Below, one piece after another: positions 3,560-63,446 of a DNA stretch of 64,000 nt. Source of the stretch: a virus. The stretch spans positions 1-64,000 of the IMG/VR virus record IMGVR_UViG_3300045988_139474, one strand, 5' to 3'. Under the pieces are notes generated by a model. That model was not told where the DNA came from. It saw nothing but the letters and a program-made list of their open reading frames with translations, and did no database searches. Numbering within the stretch: position 1 is the first letter of the stretch; every line of letters starts with the position of its first letter. A program made the translations under genes and the position numbers.

Positions 3560-3596
3560 TACCTTATATTCTCAACAACCAATCTTAATTTTTCGC
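3560..3596 (-). promoter_or_regulatory. class I phage promoter motif
   Basis: Minus strand GAAAAATTAAGATTGGTTGTTGAGAATATAAGG, ~55 nt upstream of the ligA ATG. Confidence 0.6.
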
Positions 3597-3633
3597 AAAA
3601 ATAAAAGCACCTAACTCAAGGAATCGGGTGCTC
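3597..3633 (-). terminator. rho-independent terminator
   Basis: Minus strand AGCACCC-loop-GGTGCT followed by TTTTATTTTTG, after 3644..4054. Confidence 0.65.
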
Positions 3634-3643
3634 AGCTATCTGG

Positions 3644-4054
3644 TCATTTGCTACATGTGTTCTGCATGCTTTTTGAGTACATGTCGTAGTCAGGAGTGAC
3701 TGTAATCGTGCTGCCTTCAGCCGTCTGAGAGTAGAAAGGATACTGCACTTTCATGTCTGCTAAGCAGCCTGTCTTCAACAGTTGAACGGTTACATGGAAT
3801 TCAGTCTTGAACTCCCTGCTTTCGGCTCGCTTGTATATCACTTTAGCAGGCTGAGACAACTCATTCAATTGCTTCTGGAAGTAGGATTCGGCCTTATTAG
3901 CTGCAAGCCCAGTCAGGATAATAGTTACAGTAGCAATAATCAACGCGCCGATTGGTCTATCTTTTCGTACAAGCAGGAAGATTGCAAGGACTGTTGCTAA
4001 AAATGCGCCTGCGATTACAATTGCAATCCATACGCCTTCTGGATTGAGAATCAT
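3644..4054 (-). CDS. N-terminally membrane-anchored protein, paralog of 4079..4480
   Basis: Starts MILNPEGVW followed by two hydrophobic helices. Same architecture and C-terminal Cys as its neighbour. Confidence 0.75.
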   Translation of the reverse strand: MILNPEGVWIAIVIAGAFLATVLAIFLLVRKDRPIGALIIATVTIILTGLAANKAESYFQKQLNELSQPAKVIYKRAESREFKTEFHVTVQLLKTGCLADMKVQYPFYSQTAEGSTITVTPDYDMYSKSMQNTCSK

Positions 4055-4078
4055 GTTGTTACTCCTTTGTTAGGTTGA

Positions 4079-4480
4079 TTACTTCTTGCAAGCGTGTTCT
4101 AAGGCTTGTTTGTAAAGTGGGAATGTAGGTCTCACGGTTATTGAACCACCTTCAACGACCTCCCTGTAGGAGTTGTAGGTCACTAGCATGTCTGACGTGC
4201 AACCATTCTTAAACGCTAGGGTCAGATAATACTTGTTACCGTATCTTGTAGGCTCAGCCCTCTTGTACTTAACGACCGCTGATTGGGTCAGGGCAGTCAG
4301 TTTAGACTGAAAATGCTTTTCAGCGCGCTCACCCAAGAACCAAACAGTTGAGAAGACAATAATGAAAGAAGCTACTGCCCAGAGTGGCTTGTCTTCTATA
4401 AAATACAGTGCTGTAAAGCCAGCGGACAAGAAAGATAGGATAAAGAATACAAGCCACACTCCTTCAGGATTAAGAATCAT
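4079..4480 (-). CDS. N-terminally membrane-anchored protein, paralog of 3644..4054
   Basis: Starts MILNPEGVW. Shares KRAE...GC..DM.V...Y......G.SITV.P with 3644..4054. Confidence 0.75.
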   Translation of the reverse strand: MILNPEGVWLVFFILSFLSAGFTALYFIEDKPLWAVASFIIVFSTVWFLGERAEKHFQSKLTALTQSAVVKYKRAEPTRYGNKYYLTLAFKNGCTSDMLVTYNSYREVVEGGSITVRPTFPLYKQALEHACKK

Positions 4481-4481
4481 T

Positions 4482-4748
4482 TTAAACCTCCCTCGTGTAA
4501 TGCAAGAAATTGCCGCCCAACTCTAGCTTGTAATGTCGGGTCGTTTCAGGAGCGTTAGCTAAAGCAAGAGCAATAAAAGGGTAACAGTCTTCAGGCAGGG
4601 CAAGGATTGTATCCTCATGCGCTAGGTACACTTTGTTGCCTGACCTTTTAAGGGATTTGATTGACGATACCGGCACCATATGTACCTCGTCAGGCGTAAT
4701 TATGTAAAGCACGCCATTATTTACTTTGGCTGAGTATGGAATATCCAT
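4482..4748 (-). CDS. hypothetical protein, single ~70-aa PH-like module (family E)
   Basis: NNGVLYIITPDEVHMVPVSSIKSL...CYPFIALALANAP matches modules in 4749..5285, 12760..13587, 15327..15935 and 15946..16215. Confidence 0.7.
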   Translation of the reverse strand: MDIPYSAKVNNGVLYIITPDEVHMVPVSSIKSLKRSGNKVYLAHEDTILALPEDCYPFIALALANAPETTRHYKLELGGNFLHYTREV

Positions 4749-5285
4749 TTAAATGTCCTTTTCATCGTAAGGTAGTGATTTCTGCACGTTTTGATAGGCC
4801 TTAACAATGGCTAGGTACATTTCCTCAGGGAATGAAGCTTTTGCGTATTTGCCCCAGTTCCAATATTCAATCTCGGTCTTGCCTTTCGTCAATTTGATTG
4901 TTTTGATACATGAGGCATAGAACCGCGTTGCGCCTTTCTCCGTAAATACCATGAGAATGTCGTCATCACTACCACGCATTTGTATATAAGTTGCGTAAGG
5001 CAAGGAAATTGGAGTTGTGGGCTCAGGTGCTTTCTCAATTTTAGCCGATTCAACCACTGGTCGGTTAGTCGCAGGTGCGCTAGATAAAGCGTCAGCAATC
5101 ATAGCATAGTATTCTCTAGGCAGCTTTATGGTTGAGCGACTGCGTGCGGCATTCGTATAAGTGACCCAAGTCTCGTCACCAGACATAGACAAAGTGATTG
5201 TTTTGGCTGGGAGTGTATACAGGTATGTAGGCGTAGCAATCCAGAGCCAGTTATTGTTCACTCTCGCATAAGGAGGATTCAACAT
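4749..5285 (-). CDS. hypothetical protein, two tandem family E modules
   Basis: NNNWLWIATPTYLYTLPAKTITLS...YYAMIADALSSAP, then ILMVFTEKGATRFYASCIKTIKL...MYLAIVKAYQNV. Confidence 0.75.
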   Translation of the reverse strand: MLNPPYARVNNNWLWIATPTYLYTLPAKTITLSMSGDETWVTYTNAARSRSTIKLPREYYAMIADALSSAPATNRPVVESAKIEKAPEPTTPISLPYATYIQMRGSDDDILMVFTEKGATRFYASCIKTIKLTKGKTEIEYWNWGKYAKASFPEEMYLAIVKAYQNVQKSLPYDEKDI

Positions 5286-5359
5286 TTCTCGGTTTCCTTT
5301 CTTCGTTACCCTCCCAACATCTGTAAGACGTCAGGAGGGATTACAGTCAATATTTCGGC

Positions 5360-6697
5360 TTATTGACGGATTTTCACGGTAGCAGGTACAGGAGCGGCAG
5401 GCACTTCACGCACTACAACCTCTCGTACAACTTCTTTGACTACAACAGGTTGAGCATGAGCTTTAGCAACACCGCCAAATACATAGCTCAGGCCGATAGC
5501 TGCGCCGAAATTACGGCGTGTGTCGTAGTTCAGGCCTGCCTTAGATACCCAACGACCGCTTTCAGAGATATGGCTAACGCCGACAGCAACTGCGCCCTCA
5601 TGTTTGAAACCGCCGACACCCATACCAATGGAGGATTGACCTGGTTGGTAGGCTTGAGGGATGATAGCAATAGCATTCGCGCCTGCTACGCCAGCACGGG
5701 ATTCACGGCGTTGGTCGTGCAAAGCTTTCTCAAAGCCATCTTGACGCGCCAAGAAGCCCTCAGTCAGTTTCTTCAATTCAGCAATCTGAACGTCTTGAGT
5801 TGTATTCCAATTGGTTTGCTGGTTGTTGTACTGGGTAGCAATAGCTTGTACCGTTTCAATCTTGGCTGAATTCTGCTCAATACGGATGGTGTTGTTAGAC
5901 ACCTGACCCGCAACCGCGTACAGCTGAGAACCGTTCACGGCATCAGTTGAAGTTGAGGTTACTTGACCCGCAGCAACGTTTTGCAATTGACGTTCATTAC
6001 CTTTAGAACCGAAAGAAACGGCTGAAGATGGGCGATGACCCGCAAATTTGCCGTATGTTACGCCATTGACTTCTGAAGTTACGGTTTGGGTGACGGTGCT
6101 AGTTGTAGAACCAAAGCCGACAGCCACGTCTTGGTAGTTTTTAGCATGAGCGTTTGTACCGATAGCGGTTGAGAATCGGGATTCCGCAGTCGCACCGCTA
6201 CCAATAGCAGTTGAAGATTGACCTTTAGCAACAGAGGCTTGACCGATAGCGGTAGAATAACCGCCCAAAGCGTTTGCGTGTTGACCGACTGCTACTGATA
6301 CTTCACCCTCAGCTGTAGCGTGAGAACCGCCTGCGAATGAGGCCTTGCCCTTAGCTTGAGTGGCTTTACCGATAGCCGTTGCGCTGTTACCAGTCACGCG
6401 TGAACCGCTACCGATAGCAACGGTCATATTTTCCTCAGAATAGGCCTTAAAGCCTGCTACCACGTTCATGTTACCATAGCTTTCGGCTTGCTGACCGATT
6501 ACAGTTGAAACTTTACCGCCAATTTGGTTGTTTCGACCGATATTTACATGGGATTGACCGACAACGAATTGGTCGTGACCTAATACTACATGGCCTGAGC
6601 CATATACTTCAGTCTTGCCAGTAACATTGACTATGTTTTCGGCCAATACAGGCATTGAGACGGCTGCGATAGCCAATGCGATTACAGAGTGTTTCAT
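5360..6697 (-). CDS. YadA-like trimeric autotransporter adhesin
   Basis: Sec signal MKHSVIALAIAAVSMPVLA; repeated head motifs (STAIG..A.A); neck NVAAGQ..STDAVNGSQLYAV; coiled-coil stalk; C-terminal Gly/Ala-rich beta-barrel anchor (GLNYD...GLSYVF). An extra ~35-aa V/E/P-rich tail follows. Confidence 0.85.
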   Translation of the reverse strand: MKHSVIALAIAAVSMPVLAENIVNVTGKTEVYGSGHVVLGHDQFVVGQSHVNIGRNNQIGGKVSTVIGQQAESYGNMNVVAGFKAYSEENMTVAIGSGSRVTGNSATAIGKATQAKGKASFAGGSHATAEGEVSVAVGQHANALGGYSTAIGQASVAKGQSSTAIGSGATAESRFSTAIGTNAHAKNYQDVAVGFGSTTSTVTQTVTSEVNGVTYGKFAGHRPSSAVSFGSKGNERQLQNVAAGQVTSTSTDAVNGSQLYAVAGQVSNNTIRIEQNSAKIETVQAIATQYNNQQTNWNTTQDVQIAELKKLTEGFLARQDGFEKALHDQRRESRAGVAGANAIAIIPQAYQPGQSSIGMGVGGFKHEGAVAVGVSHISESGRWVSKAGLNYDTRRNFGAAIGLSYVFGGVAKAHAQPVVVKEVVREVVVREVPAAPVPATVKIRQ

Positions 6698-7968: not shown

Positions 7969-8004
7969 TTCAATACTCCAGTGATAATTGGTTGTTTATA
8001 GGGT

Positions 8005-8034
8005 ATAGTCTCAATCGCCAATCTTAATTTTCTT
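8005..8034 (-). promoter_or_regulatory. class I phage promoter motif
   Basis: GAAAATTAAGATTGGCGATTGAGACTATACC, upstream of 7687..7968. Confidence 0.6.
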
Positions 8035-9505: not shown

Positions 9506-9544
9506 GATTTAAATTCCTGTTAGAAAGGATTGATTGCATGAGAA

Positions 9545-9572
9545 ATGTCTCACGAACCAATCCTAATTTCGT
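9545..9572 (-). promoter_or_regulatory. class I phage promoter motif (variant)
   Basis: GAAATTAGGATTGGTTCGTGAGACATTTCT, upstream of 9035..9505. Confidence 0.5.
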
Positions 9573-10223: not shown

Positions 10224-10261
10224 GATTCTGACTCCAGATAGAAAGATTGGTTGTATATAAT

Positions 10262-10292
10262 GTATTATCTCAACGACCAATCTTTATTTTTA
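10262..10292 (-). promoter_or_regulatory. class I phage promoter motif
   Basis: TAAAAATAAAGATTGGTCGTTGAGATAATACA, upstream of 9585..10223. Confidence 0.6.
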
Positions 10293-11950: not shown

Positions 11951-11989
11951 GTTATTACTCCTTCTTTCGGGTTTAGTTGGTTCATACTT

Positions 11990-12020
11990 GTATATCGCAT
12001 GCGCCAGATTTAATTTTCTA
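11990..12020 (-). promoter_or_regulatory. class I phage promoter motif (variant)
   Basis: GAAAATTAAATCTGGCGCATGCGATATACAAG, directly after terminator 12031..12067. Confidence 0.55.
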
Positions 12021-12030: not shown

Positions 12031-12067
12031 CAAAAATAAAACCTCCCAATCGAAAAGACTGGGAGGC
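12031..12067 (-). terminator. rho-independent terminator
   Basis: CCTCCCA-GTCTTTTCGAT-TGGGAGG followed by TTTTATTTTTG, after 12094..12294. Confidence 0.75.
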
Positions 12068-14144: not shown

Positions 14145-14161
14145 AGGGATTCTTCCTTTCT

Positions 14162-14844: not shown

Positions 14845-14892
14845 CAGTCTGAATCCTCAGGTTATGTTTGGTCGTCTAAATTTTCGCTCAGT

Positions 14893-15213: not shown

Positions 15214-15249
15214 TTTGTTACTCCTGAAAGGTATTGTTTGGTTATACTT

Positions 15250-15280
15250 GTAAATCTCACTAGCCAATCTTAATTTTTAG
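15250..15280 (-). promoter_or_regulatory. class I phage promoter motif
   Basis: TAAAAATTAAGATTGGCTAGTGAGATTTACAAG, directly after terminator 15282..15316. Confidence 0.6.
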
Positions 15281-15281: not shown

Positions 15282-15316
15282 AAAAAGAAAACCTCCTAAT
15301 CAAAAGACTAGGAGGC
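15282..15316 (-). terminator. rho-independent terminator
   Basis: CCTCCTA-GTCTTTTGAT-TAGGAGG followed by TTTTCTTTTTG, after 15327..15935. Confidence 0.75.
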
Positions 15317-15326
15317 CGTCTGGGAG

Positions 15327-19966: not shown

Positions 19967-20001
19967 TTTAGTTCCTTTTAGACTATCGGTTGTTCATACT
20001 T

Positions 20002-20030
20002 GTATATTGCATTCGCCAAATTTAATTTTC
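20002..20030 (-). promoter_or_regulatory. class I phage promoter motif (variant)
   Basis: GAAAATTAAATTTGGCGAATGCAATATACA, upstream of 19679..19966. Confidence 0.55.
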
Positions 20031-20726: not shown

Positions 20727-20761
20727 TTTAGTTCCTTTAAGACTATCGGTTGTTCATACTT

Positions 20762-20791
20762 GTATATCGCATGAGCCAATCCTAATTTTTC
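20762..20791 (-). promoter_or_regulatory. class I phage promoter motif
   Basis: GAAAAATTAGGATTGGCTCATGCGATATACA, upstream of 20073..20726. Its leader is nearly identical to that of 20002..20030. Confidence 0.6.
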
Positions 20792-23432: not shown

Positions 23433-23469
23433 GATGTTGACTCCTATTATTAAGTTTGGTTGTATAAGG

Positions 23470-23498
23470 TATTATCTCACAGTCCAATCTTAATTTTC
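23470..23498 (-). promoter_or_regulatory. class I phage promoter motif (proximal copy of a tandem pair)
   Basis: GAAAATTAAGATTGGACTGTGAGATAATACC, upstream of 23085..23432. Confidence 0.6.
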
Positions 23499-23537
23499 TG
23501 CGTTTTAGCTCGTATTGTTAAGATTGGCTGTATAAGG

Positions 23538-23566
23538 TATTATCTCAACGGCCAATCTTAATTTTC
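23538..23566 (-). promoter_or_regulatory. class I phage promoter motif (distal copy of a tandem pair)
   Basis: GAAAATTAAGATTGGCCGTTGAGATAATACC, abutting the stop of 23566..23826. Confidence 0.6.
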
Positions 23567-25298: not shown

Positions 25299-25324
25299 GA
25301 GATTTCCTCAGTTGTCTATTGATA

Positions 25325-25357
25325 CTGTAATATTGCGGTGACCAATTTTAATTTTTC
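25325..25357 (-). promoter_or_regulatory. class I phage promoter motif
   Basis: GAAAAATTAAAATTGGTCACCGCAATATTACAG, upstream of 24873..25298. Confidence 0.55.
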
Positions 25358-26286: not shown

Positions 26287-26314
26287 TTTGACTCTCCATA
26301 CTACTAAGTGTTGT

Positions 26315-26352
26315 TCATACTGTTATATCTCAATCACCAATCTTAATTTTTC
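26315..26352 (-). promoter_or_regulatory. class I phage promoter motif
   Basis: GAAAAATTAAGATTGGTGATTGAGATATAACAG, upstream of 26014..26286. Confidence 0.6.
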
Positions 26353-28415: not shown

Positions 28416-28439
28416 GCAGTCTCCTTAAGGGTGCTGTTA

Positions 28440-28472
28440 CCATAATATCTCAACAACCAATCTTAATTTTTA
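28440..28472 (-). promoter_or_regulatory. class I phage promoter motif
   Basis: TAAAAATTAAGATTGGTTGTTGAGATATTATGG. The TAA stop of 28463..29140 lies inside the motif. Confidence 0.6.
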
Positions 28473-30481: not shown

Positions 30482-30519
30482 AGGTCTAACTCCTTTAATT
30501 TGGGTGAAAGGTGCTGTTA

Positions 30520-30552
30520 CTGTAATATCGCAGCACCCAATCTTAATATCTA
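30520..30552 (-). promoter_or_regulatory. class I phage promoter motif (variant)
   Basis: GATATTAAGATTGGGTGCTGCGATATTACAG, upstream of the nuclease gene. Confidence 0.55.
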
Positions 30553-31227: not shown

Positions 31228-34200
31228 TTATACTTCCTTTCTGTCGCAATCATGAATTAATTTGCCCATCATCAGTTTCTCAACTGGTAGATGTTGATAG
31301 CCGTCTGCATTCTTCACGCTGTTCTCAAGTGCTTGTCTAGCCCAACCAAAGCCTAATCGTTTCAAGATAGACGGATTTTGGGCGATTGAGTCAACAACTG
31401 TCCTGAACTTAGGATTAGGGTCATTAAATCCCCTGCTCCTCAGGAAGCTCTGGCCGTTGCTTAATACAGATACGTCACTCAAGCCCCTGACGATAACCTC
31501 AAGCAAGGTTGTATAGATATCAATGCCTGACTCGTCAAAGATTCTATGCAGTTCCATCAATACCGCTTTGGCTGACTGGTCGTAAGGCAAGTCATTAAAG
31601 CTCGTAGCAGGCTTGGCCTCAGACGAAGCAATATCAAGAAAGCTCGTTGCTTGCGCGCCTGTAGCCTTGATAAAGTCCGCAATTGCATTACCGACAGTGT
31701 ACTCCAAATCAGCCAAAGTCACACTGCCTGATGTATGTTTTCCTCTTAGGCCAGACTGGTTTAGAGGCTCGCCTGTACTAGTGCCAGCCATTACGCCGAT
31801 GCCTGTTCCTAGTCGGTAGAAGTCTTGAGTAGCAGGATTCAATCCACAACATACCGCGCAAAGGCCGTTATCATGTTCGCACATGATAGGACTGCGTACA
31901 ACAACTGTCTTCGGCAAGTCTTTCAGCATGTGCTTATACAAGATTGTACCGCGTTTCAAATCGCCCACAGGCTCGGCCAATACCTTGCCTTCAGCCTTTG
32001 AGGATTCTAGCTCTATACCTTTCTCAGCCTTACAGTCATGCGTTGTGATATTTAAATCCCTGCACAAGTTAACCAATTGACGCTCAAGATAGCCTGAGGC
32101 TGGTACCATGAAGCTGTTCATAGCCAAGCCACGTCTTGCTGGGCCGCAAGTCCGAATGTAGCTCAACACCGGCAATCCCTCGCTCAGGGCTTCTGGAATC
32201 GGCTCTTCCAAACCGCCTTGCATGGATGTTAACAAGCCTTTTGATACAATCATCTGACGGACTTGAACTGGCGTCACCCTAGCTCCTGAGTTAGCCATAG
32301 CAATCATGGAACTGTTCCTGTCTGTTGACTCGAACCAGTCTTTTACGGCCTTATTGATGTTCGTGTCCCAAGCCTTAATCCGTTCATCAAAGCCCATATC
32401 TTTCGGCAAGGCTTTGACTTCATCAATCAAGGCTTGTTGCTTGGCTGACTTCTTGACGTCATCATATGCTAAGGATAAACCAAACTTGGTTGACGTGCGG
32501 AACCAGAGGCGTTGAAGCTTCGTCAGATACTTGTGAGCATCATTACCATACTTGCGACATAACTCCAAGATGTATTTCTTCACGCCTTTCTTGTCTAACA
32601 CTTGAGTCGGTAGAATATCCGTCAATTCCCAATGGACTAATGCGCCCACGTTAGTCTTGAATCGCTGACCGTCAGTCGTCTTAACAATAATCCAGTCATC
32701 AAAAGCCAACAAGCCCTCATCATATCGGGTCAAGGCTTCCTTAGCCAGGCCGATGAATTTGACTTCCTCAGGCTCTTCAGCCAAAGCTCGTGTTAACAAC
32801 CATGAACCGACAATCTGCTCATGACCAGGTGAAGTTGATACCTTATCCCAAGCGGCAGCTGATAGCAAGTTGCGCTCGAATGATACGACCTCTTTCAATT
32901 CTTGGCAAGCCTCATCCGAAATATGGCGGTGAGTACTCATGGTGTCGCCGTCACAGTCTGCATTGAATGGAGCCATAGCAGCTGGCGGCATATGAATCGC
33001 CTTACCTGAAACAGGAATGACTTGAAAGGCCATTACAGAGTACATATGCAAGCTCGGTGCACGGTTCAAGATGATATATTCATCCTTAACAACACCCTCA
33101 ATAGCCTCCATCGTGTCTGGCGCCAATCGTTTGACCTGCGCTTGAGCCTTGCGGAAAGCCTTGATACTGGGTGTACCTTCTTTTCGGTGCTTTTGAGTGA
33201 GCCAATGAATGATATCAGGCTTAAACAACTCAAGCAGCATAGCATAAGGAATCCCCACGCTGTTGATAGGCATATCAGGAGCGGACAGAATGACTGAACG
33301 GCCTGAAAAATCGACCGTCTTGCCTAACAACGCGCCACGCGGTAATGAGCCCTCCTTACCCTTCAACTTCTCAATACGTGGAATCAGTTTGGCGTTACCA
33401 AATTCACCACCTTCGATAAATTGGATGTTAATCATCTTCTGAACGACACAAGAGGTCATCGACTTAACAACCTGAATCTGCTCAGGGGTCAAGCTATCGG
33501 AGGACATCAAAGCAGCCAGTTTACTCGATTCGCGGATAAGCCTTGAGTAAATCAAGTTTGTCTCGTCATAAAAGATTTTCTCATCAGCACGGCGCAACGG
33601 TCTAGCATCTGGAGGTGTCACGACAACGGTTGAGTTGATAAAAGACAGCAGGTTGTAACCAGCCTTCTGATACTTCTCAGACACCCCTGCATAGCTGAAT
33701 CGCAACGTCTCTACGCAATCAATGTTACGCTCCAACAAGTCGTACAGGCCTGAGATACCGCCTTTCAATTCAGGTGAATCGTCAATAATTAAGCAATAGC
33801 GTTTACCGTCTAGGCCGTACAACGCCCCAGCCGTGTTCTCTTCTAGCTCTAAATTCACTTCACCCAAAGATACCGCTTGCAGGGTTTCTGGTGTAACATC
33901 AATCAATTCCGCAAATGTCTTCAAGAACAACGGATTGATATAGTGGCAATTCAGCTCAATATGGCCGTAACGCTTGCTGCGCTCTTCAGCCTTAACATAG
34001 TCCACACCGCATACTTCGCAAGTCAGGATAGTGTCCGACTTCTTCGCTCTCGGATTATGATGACCGCAAGAACATGTATAGTCATGCTCTGGGCCAAAGA
34101 TATTCTCAGCATACAAGCCGTCTGGAATCGGCTTTGGGTGCTTGTAGTTGAAGTTGTACTTACCCATGTTTATCACTTCGCCATGGGACAACTCCCTAAT

Positions 34201-34236
34201 TCTTTCATCGCTGAGCAAAAACATTTTATCCTCCAA
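31228..34236 (-). CDS. compact RNA polymerase beta-prime (RpoC) homologue
   Basis: 1002 aa, colinear with E. coli RpoC: Zn ribbon (ENIFGPEHDYTCSCG...CEVCGV...RYGHIEL), GKTVDFSGRSVI...ELFKP, NRAPSLH...APFNADCDGDTM (Mg site NADFDGD), bridge helix SGYLERQLVNLCRD, trigger loop GVMAGTSTGEPLNQSGLRGKHTSG. Confidence 0.9.
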   Translation of the reverse strand: MEDKMFLLSDERIRELSHGEVINMGKYNFNYKHPKPIPDGLYAENIFGPEHDYTCSCGHHNPRAKKSDTILTCEVCGVDYVKAEERSKRYGHIELNCHYINPLFLKTFAELIDVTPETLQAVSLGEVNLELEENTAGALYGLDGKRYCLIIDDSPELKGGISGLYDLLERNIDCVETLRFSYAGVSEKYQKAGYNLLSFINSTVVVTPPDARPLRRADEKIFYDETNLIYSRLIRESSKLAALMSSDSLTPEQIQVVKSMTSCVVQKMINIQFIEGGEFGNAKLIPRIEKLKGKEGSLPRGALLGKTVDFSGRSVILSAPDMPINSVGIPYAMLLELFKPDIIHWLTQKHRKEGTPSIKAFRKAQAQVKRLAPDTMEAIEGVVKDEYIILNRAPSLHMYSVMAFQVIPVSGKAIHMPPAAMAPFNADCDGDTMSTHRHISDEACQELKEVVSFERNLLSAAAWDKVSTSPGHEQIVGSWLLTRALAEEPEEVKFIGLAKEALTRYDEGLLAFDDWIIVKTTDGQRFKTNVGALVHWELTDILPTQVLDKKGVKKYILELCRKYGNDAHKYLTKLQRLWFRTSTKFGLSLAYDDVKKSAKQQALIDEVKALPKDMGFDERIKAWDTNINKAVKDWFESTDRNSSMIAMANSGARVTPVQVRQMIVSKGLLTSMQGGLEEPIPEALSEGLPVLSYIRTCGPARRGLAMNSFMVPASGYLERQLVNLCRDLNITTHDCKAEKGIELESSKAEGKVLAEPVGDLKRGTILYKHMLKDLPKTVVVRSPIMCEHDNGLCAVCCGLNPATQDFYRLGTGIGVMAGTSTGEPLNQSGLRGKHTSGSVTLADLEYTVGNAIADFIKATGAQATSFLDIASSEAKPATSFNDLPYDQSAKAVLMELHRIFDESGIDIYTTLLEVIVRGLSDVSVLSNGQSFLRSRGFNDPNPKFRTVVDSIAQNPSILKRLGFGWARQALENSVKNADGYQHLPVEKLMMGKLIHDCDRKEV

Positions 34237-35218: not shown

Positions 35219-35244
35219 AAAATAACCTCATTTTGCTACAATAG

Positions 35245-35276
35245 ATGATATTTCAGTCACCAACGTTAATTTTTGC
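35245..35276 (-). promoter_or_regulatory. class I phage promoter motif (variant)
   Basis: CAAAAATTAACGTTGGTGACTGAAATATCATC. The TAA stop of the DNA polymerase gene lies inside the motif. Confidence 0.5.
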
Positions 35277-41194: not shown

Positions 41195-41236
41195 AAAAAG
41201 CCCTGATGAGCTTTGATATTTCACTCACCAGGGCTA
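41195..41236 (-). terminator. rho-independent terminator
   Basis: AGCCCTGGTGAG-loop-CTCATCAGGGCT followed by TTTTTT, after 41248..42444. Confidence 0.75.
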
Positions 41237-41243
41237 ATTTTTA
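41212..41243 (-). promoter_or_regulatory. class I-like promoter motif overlapping a terminator
   Basis: TAAAAATTAGCCCTGGTGAGTGAAATATCAAAG, upstream of the primase gene. Degenerate core. Confidence 0.4.
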
Positions 41244-51563: not shown

Positions 51564-51599
51564 TTGATATGTCTCCTGACTAGGTTGATAATAGGTAGC

Positions 51600-51631
51600 T
51601 TTAAATCTCGCTCACCAATTTTAATTTTTAA
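51600..51631 (-). promoter_or_regulatory. class I phage promoter motif
   Basis: TAAAAATTAAAATTGGTGAGCGAGATTTAAAG, upstream of 50973..51563. Confidence 0.55.
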
Positions 51632-51935: not shown

Positions 51936-51981
51936 TCTGCTTAATCTGGTGCTTGGGATACTTTATCGCTCAAGCTATGAC

Positions 51982-52012
51982 TGTATATTCTGTTCACCAA
52001 TTCTAATTTTTA
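51982..52012 (-). promoter_or_regulatory. class I phage promoter motif driving the tRNA
   Basis: TAAAAATTAGAATTGGTGAACAGAATATACAG, ~45 nt upstream of the tRNA 5' end. Confidence 0.55.
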
Positions 52013-52406: not shown

Positions 52407-52435
52407 GGTGTTTCCTTAAAAGTGCTATTCATAAG

Positions 52436-52466
52436 CTGATATTCCATCAGCCAATCTTAATTTTTA
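52436..52466 (-). promoter_or_regulatory. class I phage promoter motif
   Basis: TAAAAATTAAGATTGGCTGATGGAATATCAGC, upstream of 52029..52406. Confidence 0.6.
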
Positions 52467-55170: not shown

Positions 55171-55310
55171 TGATATTCTTCTGCTGCACACTCACTCAAC
55201 TAAGGAATCAGACGGCCTAAAGACTGAAATCAATCATCATGAAAGATTCTTCTCAATCCTGCTGAAGCATGAAAACAGCCCTGCTGTGTTACCAGAGGGC
55301 TGATGTTTTC
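55171..55310 (+). ncRNA. candidate ~140-nt non-coding transcript L2 downstream of U2
   Basis: Runs from the AT-rich end of U2 to the terminator hairpin 55276-55302. Only a motif-less 62-codon ORF overlaps it. Confidence 0.3.
55271..55310. terminator. bidirectional terminator hairpin
   Basis: CAGCCCT (55276-82) pairs with AGGGCTG (55296-302). A T-run follows on both strands (plus ATGTTTTCGG; minus TTTTCATGC). It lies between convergent units. Confidence 0.6.
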
Positions 55311-58641: not shown

Positions 58642-58671
58642 AATTCATCACCTATCTGTCGGGTTGTAGGT

Positions 58672-58703
58672 TGTTATCTTTCAACAGCCAGTGGTAATTT
58701 TTA
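58672..58703 (-). promoter_or_regulatory. class I-like promoter motif (degenerate)
   Basis: TAAAAATTACCACTGGCTGTTGAAAGATAACAAC, upstream of 57145..58641. Confidence 0.4.
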
Positions 58704-58979: not shown

Positions 58980-59011
58980 GTTTGTTATTTCCTTGTCTGG
59001 TTATTCATGAT

Positions 59012-59042
59012 TTATAGTCTCAGCAACCAATTATAATTTTTA
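59012..59042 (-). promoter_or_regulatory. class I phage promoter motif (variant)
   Basis: TAAAAATTATAATTGGTTGCTGAGACTATAAATC, upstream of 58701..58979. Confidence 0.55.
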
Positions 59043-59169
59043 TCAGCCCTGTCAGCACAGGGTTCAGTCGGTCGGATAGCTGAGGATTGAGATTTCAGTT
59101 TCATGGCTGTTAGTCGATTAAGTGGTGATTGAGGTCTGATTGTGAGGGCTGAGGAATGATTGTTTTCCG

Positions 59170-59335
59170 TCTAGTTAATATAATATAGAACGTTGTATTT
59201 GGGTTTGGTATCACATCTATGAGTTTGGAATTGGATATTTCGTTGATAACTCGTTGAAATAAAGCAGGAATTTTTAGCCAAAATCTTGGTTTTATGTACG
59301 GAATCCCAACTATTACAAGATTCAGTTTCCAATTC
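59170..59335 (-). repeat. ~170-bp repeat unit U3 (minus orientation, most diverged)
   Basis: The reverse complement aligns with U1/U2: ..GAATCTTGTAATAGTTGGGATTCCGTACATAAAACCAAGATTTTGGCTAAAAATTCC..TTATCAACGAAATATCCAATTCCAAACTCATAGATGTGATAC. Confidence 0.8.
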
Positions 59336-59350
59336 CTGCTATTGCGTTGC

Positions 59351-60169
59351 TTAAAGCTCTGAATTAGTCATGCTTGAGTCGATGTAATTCAGCACAGGCC
59401 GTCTCAGCTTCTCACTCACTGTACCAGAAGTCATCTCAGCTTGCTGTCCTGGTACAGGCTTGTCGCTTGAGGGCTTCTTGTAGTTGCGTTTGTTCTTCTG
59501 AGCTCGTTTGAACTCTTCCTTATCAATCCCTAGCTTCTTCTGCAAGTCCTCTTGAACTTCACCCCATGTAAGGGACTTACCCTCAGCCAGATAGCCGTCA
59601 TAGATTTTAGCATAAGTCTTAGACAGGCCTAAAGCAGGGTCAGACACTTTGATTTCTCGCAACAGTTTATCCTTGTCAACCAGGCCTGCTTTCATGTAGG
59701 TTACGAAGTCTGTCTGTGATTGAAGCTTCTGAGGAGCAGCAACCAGCCACATGAGTGCAAGGTCTAATGGCTGAGCAACTGGGACTTTGACTCCAAACAT
59801 CATGCGCGGTTTAGCTCGGTGAACGGCTGAGGCGTAAGGGTCAAAGCCGATATTGAACAGCAGGTCATAAGTCTTAGTCTTACCACCGCCTTGAGCAGCT
59901 TTCATCTGATACTGCCCAGCACCTACTTCCTTGAAGTCAAATTCGTCTGCTAAGGCTTCCATGACTTCATCTTCGTCTGAGATGACTAGCAAGTCTAGGT
60001 CTTGAGTTGCTCTCGGTTTGGGTGCATATTCGTTGTAGGCTAATCCACCCACGATACAGTACTCAAAGTCATTCTCAGTCATGACTGCTATCAGTCGCTT
60101 GAACTGGGACTTGAAGTCTTTGTAGCCTAATGCTTCATATGCTTTGAGTAGCTCGGCACTTCTGGACAT
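59351..60169 (-). CDS. AbiEii-like nucleotidyltransferase-fold protein with basic C-terminal tail
   Basis: CIVGGLAYNEYAPKPRATQDLDLLVI fits the same GG.A...R.T.D.D signature as 28463..29140. Lys-rich tail (KRAQKNKRNYKKPSSDK). Confidence 0.55.
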   Translation of the reverse strand: MSRSAELLKAYEALGYKDFKSQFKRLIAVMTENDFEYCIVGGLAYNEYAPKPRATQDLDLLVISDEDEVMEALADEFDFKEVGAGQYQMKAAQGGGKTKTYDLLFNIGFDPYASAVHRAKPRMMFGVKVPVAQPLDLALMWLVAAPQKLQSQTDFVTYMKAGLVDKDKLLREIKVSDPALGLSKTYAKIYDGYLAEGKSLTWGEVQEDLQKKLGIDKEEFKRAQKNKRNYKKPSSDKPVPGQQAEMTSGTVSEKLRRPVLNYIDSSMTNSEL

Positions 60170-60640: not shown

Positions 60641-60659
60641 ATTGTCCCTCCTTGAGTCT

Positions 60660-60689
60660 TGATATCTGTTCAGCCAATTCTAATTTTTC
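60660..60689 (-). promoter_or_regulatory. class I phage promoter motif (variant)
   Basis: GAAAAATTAGAATTGGCTGAACAGATATCAAG, upstream of 60257..60640. Confidence 0.55.
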
Positions 60690-61000: not shown

Positions 61001-61044
61001 TTAGATTGAGGATTTCTATGCATGACTGTTCTCAAGTCTCAAAG

Positions 61045-61212
61045 ATTAATTTATTAGTTATATAATACCTGTGGTGTTGATATTGTATCACATCTATGAC
61101 ATTGAAATCGTATATTTCGTGGATAACTCGTTGTAACTCAATAGAAATTTTTAGACAAAATCTTGGACTTATGTACGGAATCTTGGCGGGTACAGAATCT
61201 AGATTGCAGTTT
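61045..61212 (-). repeat. ~170-bp repeat unit U4 (minus orientation)
   Basis: Reverse complement: ..GATTCCGTACATAAGTCCAAGATTTTGTCTAAAAATTTC..TTATCCACGAAATATACGATTTCAATGTCATAGATGTGATAC, then GGTATTATATAACTAAT. Confidence 0.85.
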
Positions 61213-61424
61213 CTGTATCCCAGCAGCAAGATTCATCAGTCAATCATTGATTTCCCTCTAATTGCTCAAGCAAGGATTTCAGTTTGTTCCCTTCCTGCTG
61301 ACTCAGGCTCCATACGGTCGGAGAAAGCCTCAGCAGTCTCAAATTTCTGTTTTTCATGCTCATGGCTGTAAAGTCTCAATTCAGGGCTTGGTTGAGTGTT
61401 GAAGAGGGTGTCAGGGTTGTTATT

Positions 61425-61592
61425 CTTCTATTAGATAATATATAATCTGTGGTTGTGTATTTGTATCACATCTATGACATTGAAATCGTATATTTCGTGG
61501 ATAAGTTTCTAATAAATCAGGGGAATTTTTAGACAAAATCCTGTCTTTATGTTCCGATTCCCAGCCGTTACAAGATTCATATTGCAAATCAG
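61425..61592 (-). repeat. ~170-bp repeat unit U5 (minus orientation)
   Basis: Reverse complement: TTGCAATATGAATCTTGTAACGGCTGGGAATCGGAACATAAAGACAGGATTTTGTCTAAAAATTCCCCTGATTTATTAGAAACTTATCCACGAAATATACGATTTCAATGTCATAGATGTGATAC. Confidence 0.85.
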
Positions 61593-61594
61593 CA

Positions 61595-61631
61595 ATAAAA
61601 AAGCCCTGCTAGCATGAAACTAACAGGGCTG
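61595..61631 (-). terminator. rho-independent terminator
   Basis: AGCCCTG-loop-CAGGGCT followed by TTTTTTATTG on the minus strand, after 61653..61943. Confidence 0.75.
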
Positions 61632-61652
61632 GGGTTGGGGTATGACTGTAGG

Positions 61653-61943
61653 CTAACGGAACAGCTCAGGGTGAGCTATCTCAAGGTCGATACAAGTGTT
61701 GCGGTAGTCAGGGTCAATGAAGGCATCTACTGACTCATTGCCCTCTTCGTCCACGATTGTCCGTTTCAAGCCTAAGACTGCTGAGTGTGTATTATTCATG
61801 TAATACTCTTCCATTACAATCAGCTTCTCACCATCACGGGATTCCACTTGGTCTTGAGAAAACTCGCAGTCAAGATTGCCGGCATATCGCTCTAACTCGG
61901 AAAGCTCGCATTCTACCATCACGTCATCTAATTGCTCATCCAT
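61653..61943 (-). CDS. small, very acidic protein
   Basis: 96 aa, roughly a quarter Asp/Glu. Followed by terminator 61595..61631. Confidence 0.65.
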   Translation of the reverse strand: MDEQLDDVMVECELSELERYAGNLDCEFSQDQVESRDGEKLIVMEEYYMNNTHSAVLGLKRTIVDEEGNESVDAFIDPDYRNTCIDLEIAHPELFR

Positions 61944-61959
61944 GCTTACGCTCCGTTGA

Positions 61960-63084
61960 TTATTCAGGTTTACCTTCTACAACTTTACCAGAGTGTACAC
62001 CCAATACGGTATAAGCGCAAGTGCGGGCTTTCTGGCCGTTGTAGTCGGTCGGTACAGACACGAAGTCCTCAGGAGCAACAGACACCTCAAGGATTACGCT
62101 GTCTCGGCCACTGCCATATTGCTCAGCGTATTCCAACGCGCCGACATGTAAGCCATGAGAACAGGTCTGATCTGGGTCATCGTTGACTTCTTCACGCGGC
62201 ATGGTAATAGTTGCGCCGATTTTGTTCTTAATCTTGTTTGAGTACAAGTCATACAAGTCTGGTCGTACAGCCTTGTAAGCCAAGACTGAGCCGTCTTCAC
62301 GCAATTTGATACAGTTATGCTCCAAGAACATGAACAGGGTCTCAAACACGCGTTTGCTAGGGTTCTTCGCCAGACGGTTGAAGAAGGCAATCACTCGGTC
62401 GGAATCCTCAGGCTGAGAAGCCAGTACAGGTTTGATAGTGCTGTAAACTTCTTCAGGGACTTTCTTGTCTTGAATATACAATACGCCGTCTTTTACAACC
62501 CAGCCATCAATTCCTAAGCTGTCCGCAATTTCAGCGACTGTAGCGGATTCAAAGTAAACAGCCAATTGCTCAGGTTTGAAGTTTTCACTAGCAACCAATT
62601 CTTCAATCTCTTTGAATGATGGTTCAGCAGTCGTAAAGACTTTAGTGGCGATGTCTGAGCCTAATTCACGGAACAGGTACACGGTTGAGGTGAACATGCT
62701 GTAGGAATATTTCGGCTTTGGTGCGGCCTTTTTAGCCTTAGATTTTGCCTTCGGTTTTGCTTTAGATTTGGGCGCGGATTTGTCCTTGGTATTCCCTACA
62801 GAAGCCGTATTTTTGGCCTCAGAAGCTGAACGTTTTGTTGGGGCTTTACCAGCCACTTTTTTCGATTTAGTTGATTTTCGGGCTTTTGTAGGGCGGTCTG
62901 CTTTCGGTTTGTCGGGTGCTGGGGTATCAGCTGTTTCAGGGTTTTGTCGGGCTAACTCGGCATAACGGCGCAGGGAGCGGTCTGAAACGCCAGACTGCTC
63001 AACAAATTCTTTCTTGGTACCAGCTTCGACAGCCGCAATGTAATCACGGCCAAGCTGGATGCGTTGTTCAGTTGTTAATTTCAT
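61960..63084 (-). CDS. putative DNA-binding protein (N-terminal HTH, Lys/Ala/Pro-rich linker, conserved C-terminal domain)
   Basis: Start moved to ATG 63084 (MKLTTEQR). HTH-like SGVSDRSLRRYAELARQ; histone-H1-like KAKPKAKSKAKKAAPKPK linker. Confidence 0.6.
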   Translation of the reverse strand: MKLTTEQRIQLGRDYIAAVEAGTKKEFVEQSGVSDRSLRRYAELARQNPETADTPAPDKPKADRPTKARKSTKSKKVAGKAPTKRSASEAKNTASVGNTKDKSAPKSKAKPKAKSKAKKAAPKPKYSYSMFTSTVYLFRELGSDIATKVFTTAEPSFKEIEELVASENFKPEQLAVYFESATVAEIADSLGIDGWVVKDGVLYIQDKKVPEEVYSTIKPVLASQPEDSDRVIAFFNRLAKNPSKRVFETLFMFLEHNCIKLREDGSVLAYKAVRPDLYDLYSNKIKNKIGATITMPREEVNDDPDQTCSHGLHVGALEYAEQYGSGRDSVILEVSVAPEDFVSVPTDYNGQKARTCAYTVLGVHSGKVVEGKPE

Positions 63085-63156
63085 GGTGTTTTGTCCTTTG
63101 ATCAAGAGGATTATTCAACAGCCTCAATCTACAACAGACTGAGGCTCAGAATTCAG

Positions 63157-63375
63157 TTATGCGGGCTTGCAGATAGGAAACCAACGGTCATGTTTGGTGT
63201 CGTAGAATTTACCGTTATTCTGGAAGAACATAGCATTCGTTACAGCCAGAGGCGCATTCAGTTCACGGCGGTCTTTCAATTTTGCTAACGCCCAAGCTTT
63301 GAATTCATCGGTCAGGTCAGACACTTTGAGATTGAAGCTTTCGGCGATTTGGCGGAGGGTTGTTTGCGGTTTCAT
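63157..63375 (-). CDS. hypothetical small protein
   Basis: Start moved to ATG 63375 (MKPQTTLRQI; SD AAGGAAA), downstream of class I promoter 63420..63446. Confidence 0.6.
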   Translation of the reverse strand: MKPQTTLRQIAESFNLKVSDLTDEFKAWALAKLKDRRELNAPLAVTNAMFFQNNGKFYDTKHDRWFPICKPA

Positions 63376-63419
63376 ATTGATTTCCTTTAAGTAGGTTGAG
63401 ATACCATGTTTATAAGCTG

Positions 63420-63446
63420 ATATCTCAACCGCCAATCTTAATTTTC
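63420..63446 (-). promoter_or_regulatory. class I phage promoter motif
   Basis: GAAAATTAAGATTGGCGGTTGAGATATCAGC, upstream of 63157..63375. Confidence 0.6.

Follow-up and report, generated by a model that had tools for sequence, protein, structure and literature searches.

A repeated 38-base motif upstream of early and middle gene clusters in a probable Neisseria phage is very probably a promoter

The DNA analysed here (henceforth the window) comprises 64,000 nucleotides, positions 1 to 64,000 of IMG/VR record IMGVR_UViG_3300045988_139474, and represents the early/middle arm of an uncultivated phage with a genome of ~154 kb known from human oral or gut metagenomes. All but ~15–20 kb of this genome was covered in the analysis; its early arm is encoded on one strand and its late arm on the other. 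Because the phage DNA is ~40-fold enriched in the Neisseria DNA uptake sequence, a commensal Neisseria is the probable host; the phage is no relative of T4. Gene clusters in the window are preceded by a 38-base signal present in 23 copies (Table 1; copies are named by the plus-strand start of their core), with the consensus (R)AAAATTA-ARA-TTGG, N4, TG-A-R-ATAT-n-A, N3, TAT-R-AA. Among the early genes headed by these copies are ORFan arrays, rIIA/rIIB, and an ArdA-like protein; other copies immediately precede the primase-helicase-DNA polymerase genes (41228), the RNA polymerase beta' operon (35260), and a nucleotide-metabolism block (51615).

The window was scanned for the motif on both strands, using a weight matrix of 40 columns built from the sites. 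The 23 copies scored between 23.5 and 52.3 bits and all other positions at most 12 bits, with a plus-strand maximum of 3.6. Given this clean gap, the original prediction had found all copies without false ones; the motif was present at each listed position, 22 starts were right, and one was off by one base (30537 instead of 30536). The 14-mer CCAATCTTAATTTT, by comparison, had been described as near-invariant, which was overstated, as it was exact at 9 sites only (0 expected). The truly invariant part is AAATTA-N3-YTGG, which matched 21 times on the minus strand and never on the plus strand (0.17 expected), and the two sites outside this pattern carry a single-base change in the A/T box (AAATAA at 10277, ATATTA at 30537). 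The third block, TAT-R-AA, said to follow often, occurred in roughly three quarters of copies.

Conservation was determined on 59 distinct site variants from sister strains. It sets in abruptly at column 7 and fades past column 44, with A9, A11, T12, A14, G20, G21, and A30 never varying; at orthologous sites, mismatches amounted to 0–6% in columns 7–21 vs 12–19% in the flanks. The −10-like hexamer reads RATAWn, with T at the first position in none of the 59 variants and T at the −7-like position in just 44%. Across 185,579 species genomes, the motif pattern was absent except for six scattered single hits.

All copies lie on the minus (gene) strand (23/23, with 0/23 on the opposite strand), against an expectation of fewer than 1, and are intergenic or reach merely into the final codons of the gene upstream. 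AAATTA lies 46–69 nt from the next start codon at 20 of the 23 sites (start codon at motif columns 55–78), the exceptions being 97 nt at 41228, 132 nt at 23552, and 74 nt to tRNA-Met at 51997; both the gene orientation and the start-codon spacing had been predicted. A copy is present in nearly every intergenic gap of more than 60 nt located at the head of a gene cluster. Strong intrinsic terminators are located directly upstream of copies 3579, 12004, and 15264, so that the genes beyond them need a new transcription start, and the motif is the sole conserved element in these gaps. Two tandem pairs were found, one at 23.5 kb and one just past the window's left end; in the latter, the upstream copy forms a hairpin followed by a T-run. 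The surveyed early arm (roughly 85 kb) holds ~29 copies, and matrix scanning of ~46 kb of the structural (late) arm yielded none (best score 5.2). The proposed assignment to a distinct temporal class thus stands insofar as the motif occurs in the early/middle arm alone. The argument from its scarcity at 35–51 kb does not, as this region is one long, tightly packed operon and not a different class; 41228, the one degenerate copy that had been placed at 35.3–51.6 kb, was recovered.

Table 1 Motif copies and associated features in the window
Feature	Position (strand)	Score (bits)	Remarks
Motif copy 3579	3556..3593 (-)	45.0	Adjoins intrinsic terminator; 58 nt to NAD-ligase start
Copy 3579 hairpin	within 3556..3593 (-)		Overlaps −10-like box
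Intrinsic terminator	3597..3633 (-)		GAGCACC...GGTGCT then T-run; immediately upstream of copy 3579
Motif copy 8018	7995..8032 (-)	44.6	Heads operon including YadA-like gene
Motif copy 9557	9534..9571 (-)	23.5	Weakest; strong hairpin, z = −5.3
Motif copy 10277	10254..10291 (-)	44.4	AAATAA replaces AAATTA; 9-bp inverted repeat AAAGATTGG/CCAATCTTT
Motif copy 12004	11981..12018 (-)	40.0	Directly downstream of terminator 12041-12067
Intrinsic terminator	12041..12067 (-)		11-bp stem + T-run; just upstream of copy 12004
Motif copy 15264	15241..15278 (-)	46.9	Directly downstream of terminator 15290-15317
Intrinsic terminator	15290..15317 (-)		12-bp stem + T-run; just upstream of copy 15264
Motif copy 20016	19993..20030 (-)	42.7	Downstream leader nearly identical to that of copy 20776
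Motif copy 20776	20753..20790 (-)	46.8	
Motif copy 23484	23461..23498 (-)	37.5	Tandem pair, downstream member; 68 nt apart
Motif copy 23552	23529..23566 (-)	44.4	Tandem pair, upstream member; 11-bp inverted repeat TTAAGATTGGC/GCCAATCTTAA
Motif copy 25342	25319..25356 (-)	43.5	
Motif copy 26337	26314..26351 (-)	52.3	Best match
Motif copy 28457	28434..28471 (-)	44.9	Breakpoint of cassette transposition between strains
Motif copy 30537	30514..30551 (-)	36.7	GGTGCTG/CAGCACC hairpin; breakpoint of same transposition as 28457
RNA polymerase beta' gene, bacterial-type	31228..34224 (-)		998 aa; active-site NADCDGD; both zinc motifs
Motif copy 35260	35237..35274 (-)	32.1	Heads operon: 106-aa gene, 221-aa gene, beta', 225-aa gene
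Motif copy 41228	41205..41242 (-)	27.3	Degenerate; before primase-helicase-DNA polymerase genes
Copy 41228 hairpin	within 41205..41242 (-)		Box is 5' arm of 11-bp hairpin, then T6; hence a putative terminator/promoter composite
Motif copy 51615	51592..51629 (-)	36.7	Heads ~10 kb nucleotide-metabolism operon
Motif copy 51997	51974..52011 (-)	26.6	74 nt upstream of tRNA-Met (51858-51935)
Motif copy 52451	52428..52465 (-)	44.0	GCTGAT/ATCAGC hairpin over −10-like box
Motif copy 58688	58665..58702 (-)	29.2	Degenerate, CCACTGG; hairpin perfect in sister strain L130
Motif copy 59027	59004..59041 (-)	39.2	
Motif copy 60674	60651..60688 (-)	29.9	Shine-Dalgarno AAGGAGG from motif column 42
Motif copy 63432	63409..63446 (-)	48.7	Upstream of 72-aa gene + rIIB; 10-bp hairpin GGTTGAGATA/TATCTCAACC

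Hairpins, which had gone unnoticed in the original prediction, overlap about half of the motif copies. Segments of 58 nt around the sites fold better than shuffled sequences (mean z = −1.48 vs −0.03 in controls), and hairpins are kept at orthologous sites with compensating changes. The stems vary among copies in register and length and often leave the invariant bases (AAATTA, TTGG, A30) unpaired or do not reach them. These hairpins would probably damp read-through from upstream. Between strains, one cassette transposition was detected with breakpoints exactly on copies 28457 and 30537, and the repeated copies probably double as crossover points for the shuffling of gene cassettes.

The phage encodes one bacterial-type beta', likewise missed before; neither a beta nor a second set was detected. 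This beta' may be part of the enzyme reading the phage promoters and, provided that the motif acts as a promoter, is itself expressed from copy 35260. As the gene lies downstream of this copy, a beta'-containing enzyme cannot be the first to read it, unless it or a factor is injected, or other promoters come into play before. A distant relative, Escherichia phage vB_EcoM_IME392, has the replication module and the beta' gene in common with the Neisseria phage, and in both phages a bacterial-type beta' was present and beta was not detected. IME392 carries a motif of ~37 nt (CCGCTCTTTT-N7-8-AAAGGCTGTTAA-N2-TG) in ~27 copies, exclusively on the early-arm strand and 37–43 nt upstream of start codons, which bears no likeness to E. 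coli promoters and of which no published description was found in the literature. The two phages are thus alike in having the early arm on one strand and the late arm on the other, the replication module, beta', and a conserved intergenic motif in the same positions. They differ in that the motif sequences are entirely unrelated and that the beta' of IME392 is split, its two halves being encoded in reversed order.

A TTGACA-type −35 element was absent from the motif copies at the normal distance, as originally stated, and at any other allowed spacing, and, together with the hexamer RATAWn (never T first), this bears out the claim that they are no plain sigma-70 promoters. Canonical sigma-70 sites are not enriched in the window and do not include the motif copies; a few separate sites carry a canonical TATAAT (e.g., 44934), so host-type signals look different from the motif in the window. 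A minor second promoter-like class, absent from the original prediction, also occurs there.

The recurrence of the motif, its strand bias, position, and conservation, and its absence from the late arm are observations; a promoter function, a start-site position, and the identity of what reads the motif are inferred from the DNA sequence. The motif very probably serves as promoter of the phage's early and middle genes, a reading well supported by position, strand, spacing, the terminator-then-motif order, and the absence from the late arm. Each copy would restart transcription of one tightly packed gene cluster. The geometry would suit a multisubunit, sigma-type initiation complex, in which the invariant AAATTA-N3-TTGG box at about −33 to −21 would substitute for a −35 element, TG-n-RATAWn would occupy the extended −10 place, and TAT-R-AA, ~7 nt further on, would mark the putative start site; the Shine-Dalgarno sequence at column 42 of copy 60674 bounds how far downstream transcription can start. 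As the box resembles no host −35 and the hexamer departs from the host consensus, the motif is probably read by a phage-supplied factor, the candidates being a sigma-like protein or an activator that works on host RNA polymerase and, alternatively, a polymerase with the phage's own beta'. A lytic-phage early/middle promoter that requires a phage-specified component for recognition, the host sigma-70 holoenzyme alone being insufficient, is assigned a probability of roughly 0.6. Searches with Pfam and PHROGs among ~100 window proteins and the flanking regions seen found no sigma, activator, or beta gene, and the proposed phage sigma was thus left without a homolog there.

The same negative result would fit host-only early promoters, a reading considered unlikely, in which the unaided Neisseria sigma-70 holoenzyme recognises the motif as an extended −10 (TG-n-GATATt), the A-tract is a UP-like element, and conservation stems from tuning plus recombination, as for T4 early promoters and the promoter-early stem-loops (PeSLs). 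With TG one base before the hexamer and an invariant A at the −11-like position, then T and A, TG-n-RATAW does resemble an extended −10 for which the host holoenzyme alone might suffice. The genes under the motif are typical early genes and, since it heads these and the beta' gene as well, some time-zero polymerase must read it; PeSLs, moreover, share this anatomy and have host-type promoters (PMC2839356). Against this reading stand the missing −35 at every allowed spacing, a hexamer without an initial T and with T in just 44% at the −7-like position, and a most conserved part, AAATTA-N3-TTGG, without counterpart in sigma-70 recognition, as well as the canonical TATAAT at separate sites (44934) and an IME392 motif unrecognisable to E. 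coli sigma-70.

An RNA-level element without promoter activity (a processing site, 3'-end stabiliser, or terminator inside polycistronic transcripts) could account for the folding bias, the compensating changes, and the hairpin-then-T-run form of 41228 and of the upstream tandem copy left of the window. It is very unlikely, as only about half of the copies form a hairpin, with stems of variable register and length, the invariant bases frequently remain unpaired or fall outside them, and the sharp 5' edge and fixed start-codon distance suit a DNA-level signal; furthermore, three copies come after complete terminators, where no upstream RNA should remain for processing. Likewise very unlikely is a protein-binding site without promoter activity, whether it served a phage repressor or partition protein as operator or acted as a dedicated recombination linker for cassette exchange. 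Several copies show partial dyad symmetry (TTAAGATTGG...CCAATCTTAA) and the transposition breakpoints fall exactly on two copies, but the dyad is confined to a minority, the motif is asymmetric, strictly of one orientation, and at a fixed distance from the start codon, and crossover at repeated promoters is a known by-product of PeSLs, for which no separate function is needed. A promoter for a single-subunit (T7- or N4-like) RNA polymerase, with AATTAA at −17 to −12 and a start at the G of TGAGA, is extremely improbable. The T3 and K11 promoters (AATTAA/AATTAG...GGGAGA) resemble the motif superficially, and ~15–20 kb of the genome lay outside coverage. Such a polymerase gene is nevertheless missing from the early arm and from ~46 kb of the late arm, the four bases before the proposed start are unconserved, unlike in T7-type promoters, and the conserved downstream TAT-R-AA block would be left unexplained.

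Among known systems, the middle promoters of T4 (sigma appropriation by MotA/AsiA) also pair a −10-type element with a conserved box near −30 in place of the −35 and are interspersed through the prereplicative arm. The core of the MotA box is TGCTT. The proposed MotA analogy fails in that the upstream box found here is unrelated to the MotA box and lies closer to the −10, reaching −21, and no MotA or AsiA homolog was found by Pfam and PHROGs among the ~100 window proteins; nor is a separate class of abundant host-type early promoters evident in the Neisseria phage, unlike in T4. PeSLs of the T4-type phages RB49, phi1, PST, and nt-1 (Arbiol et al. 2010, PMC2839356; Comeau et al. 2014, PMC4122927) are likewise repeated intergenic cassettes of ~40–100 bp, concentrated among small ORFan genes, with the shared order of upstream stop codon, A/T-rich stretch, promoter, stem-loop (often over the −10 box; here at about half of the copies), Shine-Dalgarno, and start codon. 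Both act, or here probably act, as crossover points for cassette shuffling; mini-circle intermediates were seen with PeSLs, and one transposition with breakpoints on two copies was seen here. The Neisseria phage motif further differs by its missing −35 and non-consensus hexamer. Jumbo phages that encode multisubunit RNA polymerases (phiKZ, AR9, PhiR1-37) differ in that their motifs are ~10 nt and centred at −10 (vs ~38 nt in three blocks), that an injected virion polymerase reads their early motifs, and that they possess split, highly divergent beta/beta' in two full sets vs one bacterial-type beta' here (review, PMC7598289). According to the review, each of these phages has a conserved motif of its own upstream of early operons, which proved to be the early promoter in all cases with mapped transcripts (PMC7598289). 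As in the Neisseria phage, the motif is A/T-rich, highly conserved, and lineage-specific, differs from phage to phage, and can be found bioinformatically, and large-subunit homologs of RNA polymerase are phage-encoded.

All 23 positions at which the original prediction had placed the motif carry it on the minus strand, 22 of them exactly and one displaced by a single base (30537 instead of 30536). The exact 14-mer occurs nine times in the window (0 expected), and all 21 occurrences of the invariant skeleton AAATTA-N3-YTGG are on the minus strand, against 0.17 expected from a second-order Markov simulation. Scored with a weight matrix of 40 columns derived from the sites themselves, the 23 sites reached 23.5–52.3 bits and all other positions on both strands of the window at most 12 (plus-strand maximum 3.6); given this gap, the list of copies is taken to be complete and clean. 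In the column numbering used here, the first A of AAATTA occupies column 9. Conservation sets in abruptly at column 7 and fades past column 44, and A9, A11, T12, A14, G20, G21, and A30 are constant across the 59 distinct site variants of all strains. Between orthologous sites (18 pairs only), mismatches amount to 0–6% in columns 7–21 versus 12–19% in the flanks. Across 185,579 species genomes, the two-block pattern gave six scattered single matches and was otherwise absent. Scanning IMG/VR with the bare 14-mer yielded more than 117 chance matches and was uninformative, and the longer two-block pattern retrieved sister strains only. Literature searches with the motif string located nothing relevant.

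The motif had been predicted to be a promoter, and we agree with a probability of about 0.85, based on terminators upstream of copies, a copy ahead of a tRNA gene, tandem pairs, the edges of conservation, and the restriction to the early/middle arm. The approximately 110 genes of the window all lie on the minus strand and are tightly clustered, and each copy is intergenic or reaches at most into the final codons of the gene before it. In 20 of the 23 copies, the start codon is found at columns 55–78, the exceptions being 23552 (upstream member of one of two tandem pairs), 51997 (74 nt ahead of a tRNA-Met), and 41228. Copies 3579, 12004, and 15264 each have a strong intrinsic terminator immediately upstream, hence the genes downstream need a fresh transcription start, and in the gaps behind these three terminators the motif is the sole conserved element. 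It was also found past both window ends on the same arm. In about 46 kb of the structural arm, which runs convergently, no copy was found (best matrix score 5.2); the genes of that arm encode a giant tail fibre, baseplate, VgrG-like spike, sheath, and gp23-like capsid. As for the distinct temporal class that had been proposed, the class boundary lies between the early/middle and the structural arm, and the scarcity of copies at 35–51 kb reflects one long operon, itself headed by motif copies, rather than a different class. The motif supplies a ready operon map of the early arm. An Rfam search of the window returned tRNA only.

In copy 60674, the Shine–Dalgarno sequence begins at column 42, so that transcription there has to start at or before about column 42. 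The putative start was placed at columns 40–43, inside TAT-R-AA, at a pyrimidine–purine junction, which would put TG at about −16/−15, the hexamer RATAWn at about −13 to −8, TTGG at about −24 to −21, and AAATTA at about −33 to −28. With the start site inferred in this way, the elements are arranged as in extended −10 promoters used by multisubunit sigma-type enzymes, with a conserved box taking the place of the −35 and extending nearly to the −10. The TG of the extended −10 stands exactly one base before the hexamer (T26 in 44 and G27 in 50 of 59 variants). Other layouts were rejected. Taking TTGG as the −35 and TAT-R-AA as the −10 leaves a 15-bp spacer and would move the start downstream of the Shine–Dalgarno sequence of 60674; sigma-54 and sigma-28 types as well as the SPO1 late promoter (GATATT), judged by their consensus sequences, misfit in spacing. 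A T7-type single-subunit RNA polymerase promoter calls for unbroken conservation from −17 to +6 and for a phage gene encoding such a polymerase; the conserved blocks are split by the unconserved N4 and N3 spacers, and a single-subunit polymerase gene was not found in the genome regions seen.

Blocks of the motif (in columns) and coordinates of further features in the window and in sister strains
Feature	Location	Description
Motif block 1	columns 7–21	(R)AAAATTA-A-R-A-TTGG; then N4
Motif block 2	columns 26–35	TG-A-R-A-T-A-W-n-A; then N3
Motif block 3	columns 39–44	TAT-R-AA
Second, minor promoter-like class	44921–44950, 54342–54370, 54475–54500 (−)	hairpin, then CTT(T/A)TCGTTCTTTGTGTAT(A/T)(A/G)TGA
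Phage RNA polymerase beta' gene	31228–34224 (−)	998 aa; active site NADCDGD; both zinc motifs
Gap in tightly packed nucleotide-metabolism operon	49901–50356	456 nt; no ORF, motif copy, or Rfam match
ThyA-like enzyme, dCTP deaminase, dUTPase	43735–44892, 44984–45544, 52647–53330	
Thymidine hypermodification genes	L222 (sister strain, upstream of the right end of the window) 2451–5636	amino acid:DNA transferase, HMUD2, 5-hmdU DNA kinase
Neisseria DNA uptake sequence	3205, 35441, 37360, 63627, 63942	GCCGTCTGAA
EcoRI-type adenine methyltransferase	53346–54275 (−)	Pfam E = 1.7e-124; cleanly absent from sister strain L130
YadA-like trimeric autotransporter adhesin and actin-like ParM/ALP protein	5360–6697 (−) and 296–1246 (−)	adhesin with head, stalk, and anchor domains
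Repeat family, both orientations	~54640–54790, 55045–55190 (−); 59140–59360, 61015–61240, 61390–61620 (+)	about 150–200 nt; also at L134 15.3–17 kb and L219 7.2–7.4 kb (further loci)
Region of differing cassette order	window 28053–30550; L215 (sister strain) 14118–17714	
Variable segment	27370–28052	missing or replaced in L215

The window corresponds to the early/middle arm of a phage that is uncultivated and has a genome of about 154 kb. Its proteins have exact matches on ENA contig ERZ27263344 k119_126914 and in assemblies of run ERR589712, and sister strains (80–99% identity) are present in IMG/VR samples 7000000351 and 3300045988; when 8 kb were compared by megablast with 50,697 phage records, no near-identical phage emerged. 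The replication and nucleotide genes encode a ribonucleotide reductase, a ThyA-like enzyme, dCTP deaminase, dUTPase, primase, helicase, a family-A DNA polymerase, and an NAD-dependent ligase, and other genes encode rIIA, rIIB, an actin-like protein, a YadA-like adhesin, and the 998-aa RNA polymerase beta'. The Neisseria DNA uptake sequence was counted five times in 64 kb (0.12 expected), and the 8-mer core of this sequence 17 times (about 2 expected); among the 12-mer forms, the most frequent is AGGCCGTCTGAA, the dialect of commensal Neisseria. Based on this enrichment and dialect, the host is taken to be a commensal oral Neisseria, and the phage is a large, apparently lytic one. To our knowledge, almost no lytic phages of Neisseria have been described, and a literature search on them located nothing relevant. 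The thymidine hypermodification genes of the sister strain adjoin topoisomerase II genes. Thymidine is probably hypermodified in the phage DNA, and this could affect how its T-rich promoters are recognised.

Members of the repeat family consist of TAGATAATATATAA..TGTG, followed by TGTATCACATCTATGACATTGAAATCGTATATTTCGTGGATAA and then by a hairpin AATCCTGTA...TACAGGATT. In relatives, the family fills the inter-arm region and precedes the giant tail-fibre gene. Small ORFs called within it are probably spurious, and possible identities of the repeats are small-RNA genes, late promoters, or a mobile element.

Regarding the enzyme that reads the motif, we favour with some reserve the need for a phage-specified component, and consider it unlikely that the host holoenzyme reads the motif alone. 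Canonical sigma-70 promoters carry a TTGACA-like −35 at 16–18 bp from the −10 and a TATAAT with conserved T-12, A-11, and T-7. The equivalent of A-11 is indeed invariant here (59/59 variants); against the host enzyme, the motif offers no −35 at any allowed spacing (17 bp upstream of RATAWn lies an A5 tract that is not TTGACA-like), the first base of the hexamer is G or A in all 59 variants and never the consensus T, and a T at the −7-like position is found in only 26 of them (44%). The window shows no enrichment of canonical sigma-70 sites, and a sigma-70 scan misses the motif copies. Elsewhere in the window, a proper TATAAT preceded by TGTG is present at 44934, with variants at 54355 and 54488, so that host-type signals look different in this genome. 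The site at 44934 belongs to the minor promoter-like class, which precedes the ThyA-like gene and, as a tandem duplicate, the EcoRI-like methylase gene; the sites of this class may be host-type promoters. The most telling point is that Escherichia phage vB_EcoM_IME392 (henceforth IME392), a distant relative infecting E. coli, has a non-host motif set of its own. With the −35 missing and a hexamer that never begins with T, the motif is not plain sigma-70, as the original prediction had held. Its analogy with T4 MotA middle promoters fails on box sequence as well as gene content. The MotA box has the consensus (a/t)(a/t)(a/t)TGCTT(t/c)A and is centred near −30; the box here is AAATTA-ARA-TTGG, without the TGCTT core, and neither MotA nor AsiA was matched by Pfam or PHROGs among about 100 window proteins, a search that very divergent analogs may escape. 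Sigma, activator, and beta genes were likewise not detected by Pfam (about 100 window proteins) or PHROGs (about 40), and PDB sequence searches with two proteins of unknown function (498 and 398 aa) and a 1130-aa late protein returned nothing relevant.

Judged from its sequence, the phage beta' is a genuine bacterial-type subunit, being 28.6% identical to residues 21–950 of E. coli RpoC (E = 1e-79), with bacterial beta' chains as its best PDB matches throughout. An E. coli RpoB query found no match in the window, its flanks, the approximately 46 kb of late arm, or the complete 116 kb IME392 genome, and walking along the late arm in four steps for a beta gene met only tail, baseplate, sheath, and capsid genes; a beta gene was thus undetected in about 135 kb of this lineage (genome about 154 kb). 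A more specific and rather improbable version of the phage-specified reading is a hybrid RNA polymerase, made of phage beta' and host beta, alpha, and omega, that reads the motif as its own promoter class. The phage beta' would displace host beta' and join the host subunits, the partnering with host beta being suggested by the lack of a detectable phage beta in the lineage or in IME392, and a phage-specific initiation factor or contacts of beta' itself would recognise TTGG (about −24 to −21) and RATAW. This could also be an adaptation to DNA with hypermodified thymidine, an idea that derives from the biosynthesis genes just upstream of the window. The phage protein has E, T, and M in place of the E. 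coli clamp-helix residues R275, E295, and A302, which are key sigma-70 contacts; these substitutions hint at a different initiation partner. The beta' operon is itself headed by motif copy 35260, so that a beta'-containing enzyme could not be the only one to read the motif at first, unless beta' or its partner factor were injected or a few host-type promoters fired earlier. Two small genes abutting beta' are ORFans; for the abutting 221-aa gene, only near-identical homologs were found, and its single-sequence AlphaFold model (pLDDT 43.6) was unusable.

In two sister strains, the tblastn match to the 2997-bp beta' gene spans 4224 bp (L214) and 3441 bp (L215), and the insertions may be an intron or intein. 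The gene is split in IME392 and in Ralstonia phage RP13, with its halves in reversed order in IME392; in the stretches of RP13 examined (30–80 kb and 95–130 kb), only beta' fragments are annotated. The clade, in which a single bacterial-type beta' gene and no detectable beta are found, includes the cultured E. coli phages IME392 and EP_H11 as well as RP13. Host, polymerase gene, and promoter sets together give a concrete handle on the role of the lone phage beta' and on the reader of such promoters, and as IME392 infects E. coli, both are directly testable there.

IME392 and the phage studied here share the replication module, the ligase, and the beta' gene. The IME392 motif, CCGCTCTTTT-N7-8-AAAGGCTGTTAA-N2-TG, is unrelated to the window motif and unlike the well-known E. 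coli promoter; its approximately 27 copies lie on the early-arm strand only, 37–43 nt ahead of start codons, with none in the structural arm of IME392. Conversely, the window motif gave chance-level partial matches only in IME392. Sigma-70 sites before the IME392 beta' genes numbered 19 versus 30.8 expected from shuffled sequence, with one weak candidate among them. A publication describing the IME392 motif was not found, and a search for literature on transcription in IME392, RP13, and RHph_TM30 located nothing relevant. Taken together, the two motifs indicate that at least two members of the clade have private, sharply defined, non-host promoter sets. Among 80 loci (920 kb) with a conserved 208-aa late-arm protein of unknown function, the motif was present in the three closest strains only, and the remaining loci appear to be other phages sharing that single gene. 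Four human-microbiome viral contigs of 141–176 kb (L233, L234, L236, and L239) share a 203-aa late-arm protein adjoining the tail-sheath gene at 64–67% identity, and appear to be a sister group with early-arm promoters that could be compared with the motif. Sister-group contigs of 172–176 kb include IMGVR_UViG_7000000305_000024.

Folding of 58-nt windows around the sites was significantly better than that of shuffled sequences, with a mean z of −1.48 versus −0.03 for controls. Clear hairpins with arms flanking the −10-like box are present in about 11 of the 23 copies, and at orthologous sites several persist with compensating changes, e.g., TGTTGA/TCAACA at the ligase site in the window versus TGATAC/GTATCA in a sister strain. 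Because their 5′ arm precedes the inferred start, the hairpins could act only on read-through RNA or on DNA, and a role as attenuator or insulator fits. Full hairpin-plus-T-run terminators surround the motif at copy 41228 and at L125 position 11328 (the upstream copy of a tandem pair left of the window); the 22 other window copies are without a T-run, and the reading of the motif as an intrinsic terminator was rejected. Motif copies are dense among the ORFans at 3.5–30.5 kb. In sister strain L215, a cassette comprising the motif and a 123-aa gene (28053–28474 in the window) is relocated, with junctions exactly at copies 30537 and 28457, as a single case.

Phage-specific promoter sets are already known, and the motif is a new example rather than a new principle; what is of note is its setting, namely a Neisseria phage whose beta' gene stands alone and whose thymidine is probably hypermodified. 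Jumbo phages encoding multisubunit polymerases are likewise reported to have private promoter sets (PMC7598289). Early promoters of the jumbo-phage virion RNA polymerase combine a conserved, lineage-specific motif ahead of early operons with a transcription start some 10 nt past the motif centre. The motif here and its positions fit, its start site being putative; jumbo phages, however, carry two beta/beta'-like sets, one of them packaged in the virion, whereas only one beta' was found here in about 135 kb searched. The closest likeness in behaviour is to the promoter-early stem-loop (PeSL) cassettes of T4-type phages, which are defined by hairpins and recombination between copies (PMC2839356, PMC4122927). 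Both the association with ORFans and, in a single case, recombination between motif copies were found here, and a stem-loop lies at or near the promoter, although in about 11 of 23 copies and not universally. Whereas PeSL promoters match the host consensus, the motif does not. It is a phage-specific promoter set with PeSL-like behaviour, of a known kind in an unusual setting, and represents a second, independent instance of PeSL-like promoter cassettes as recombination linkers.
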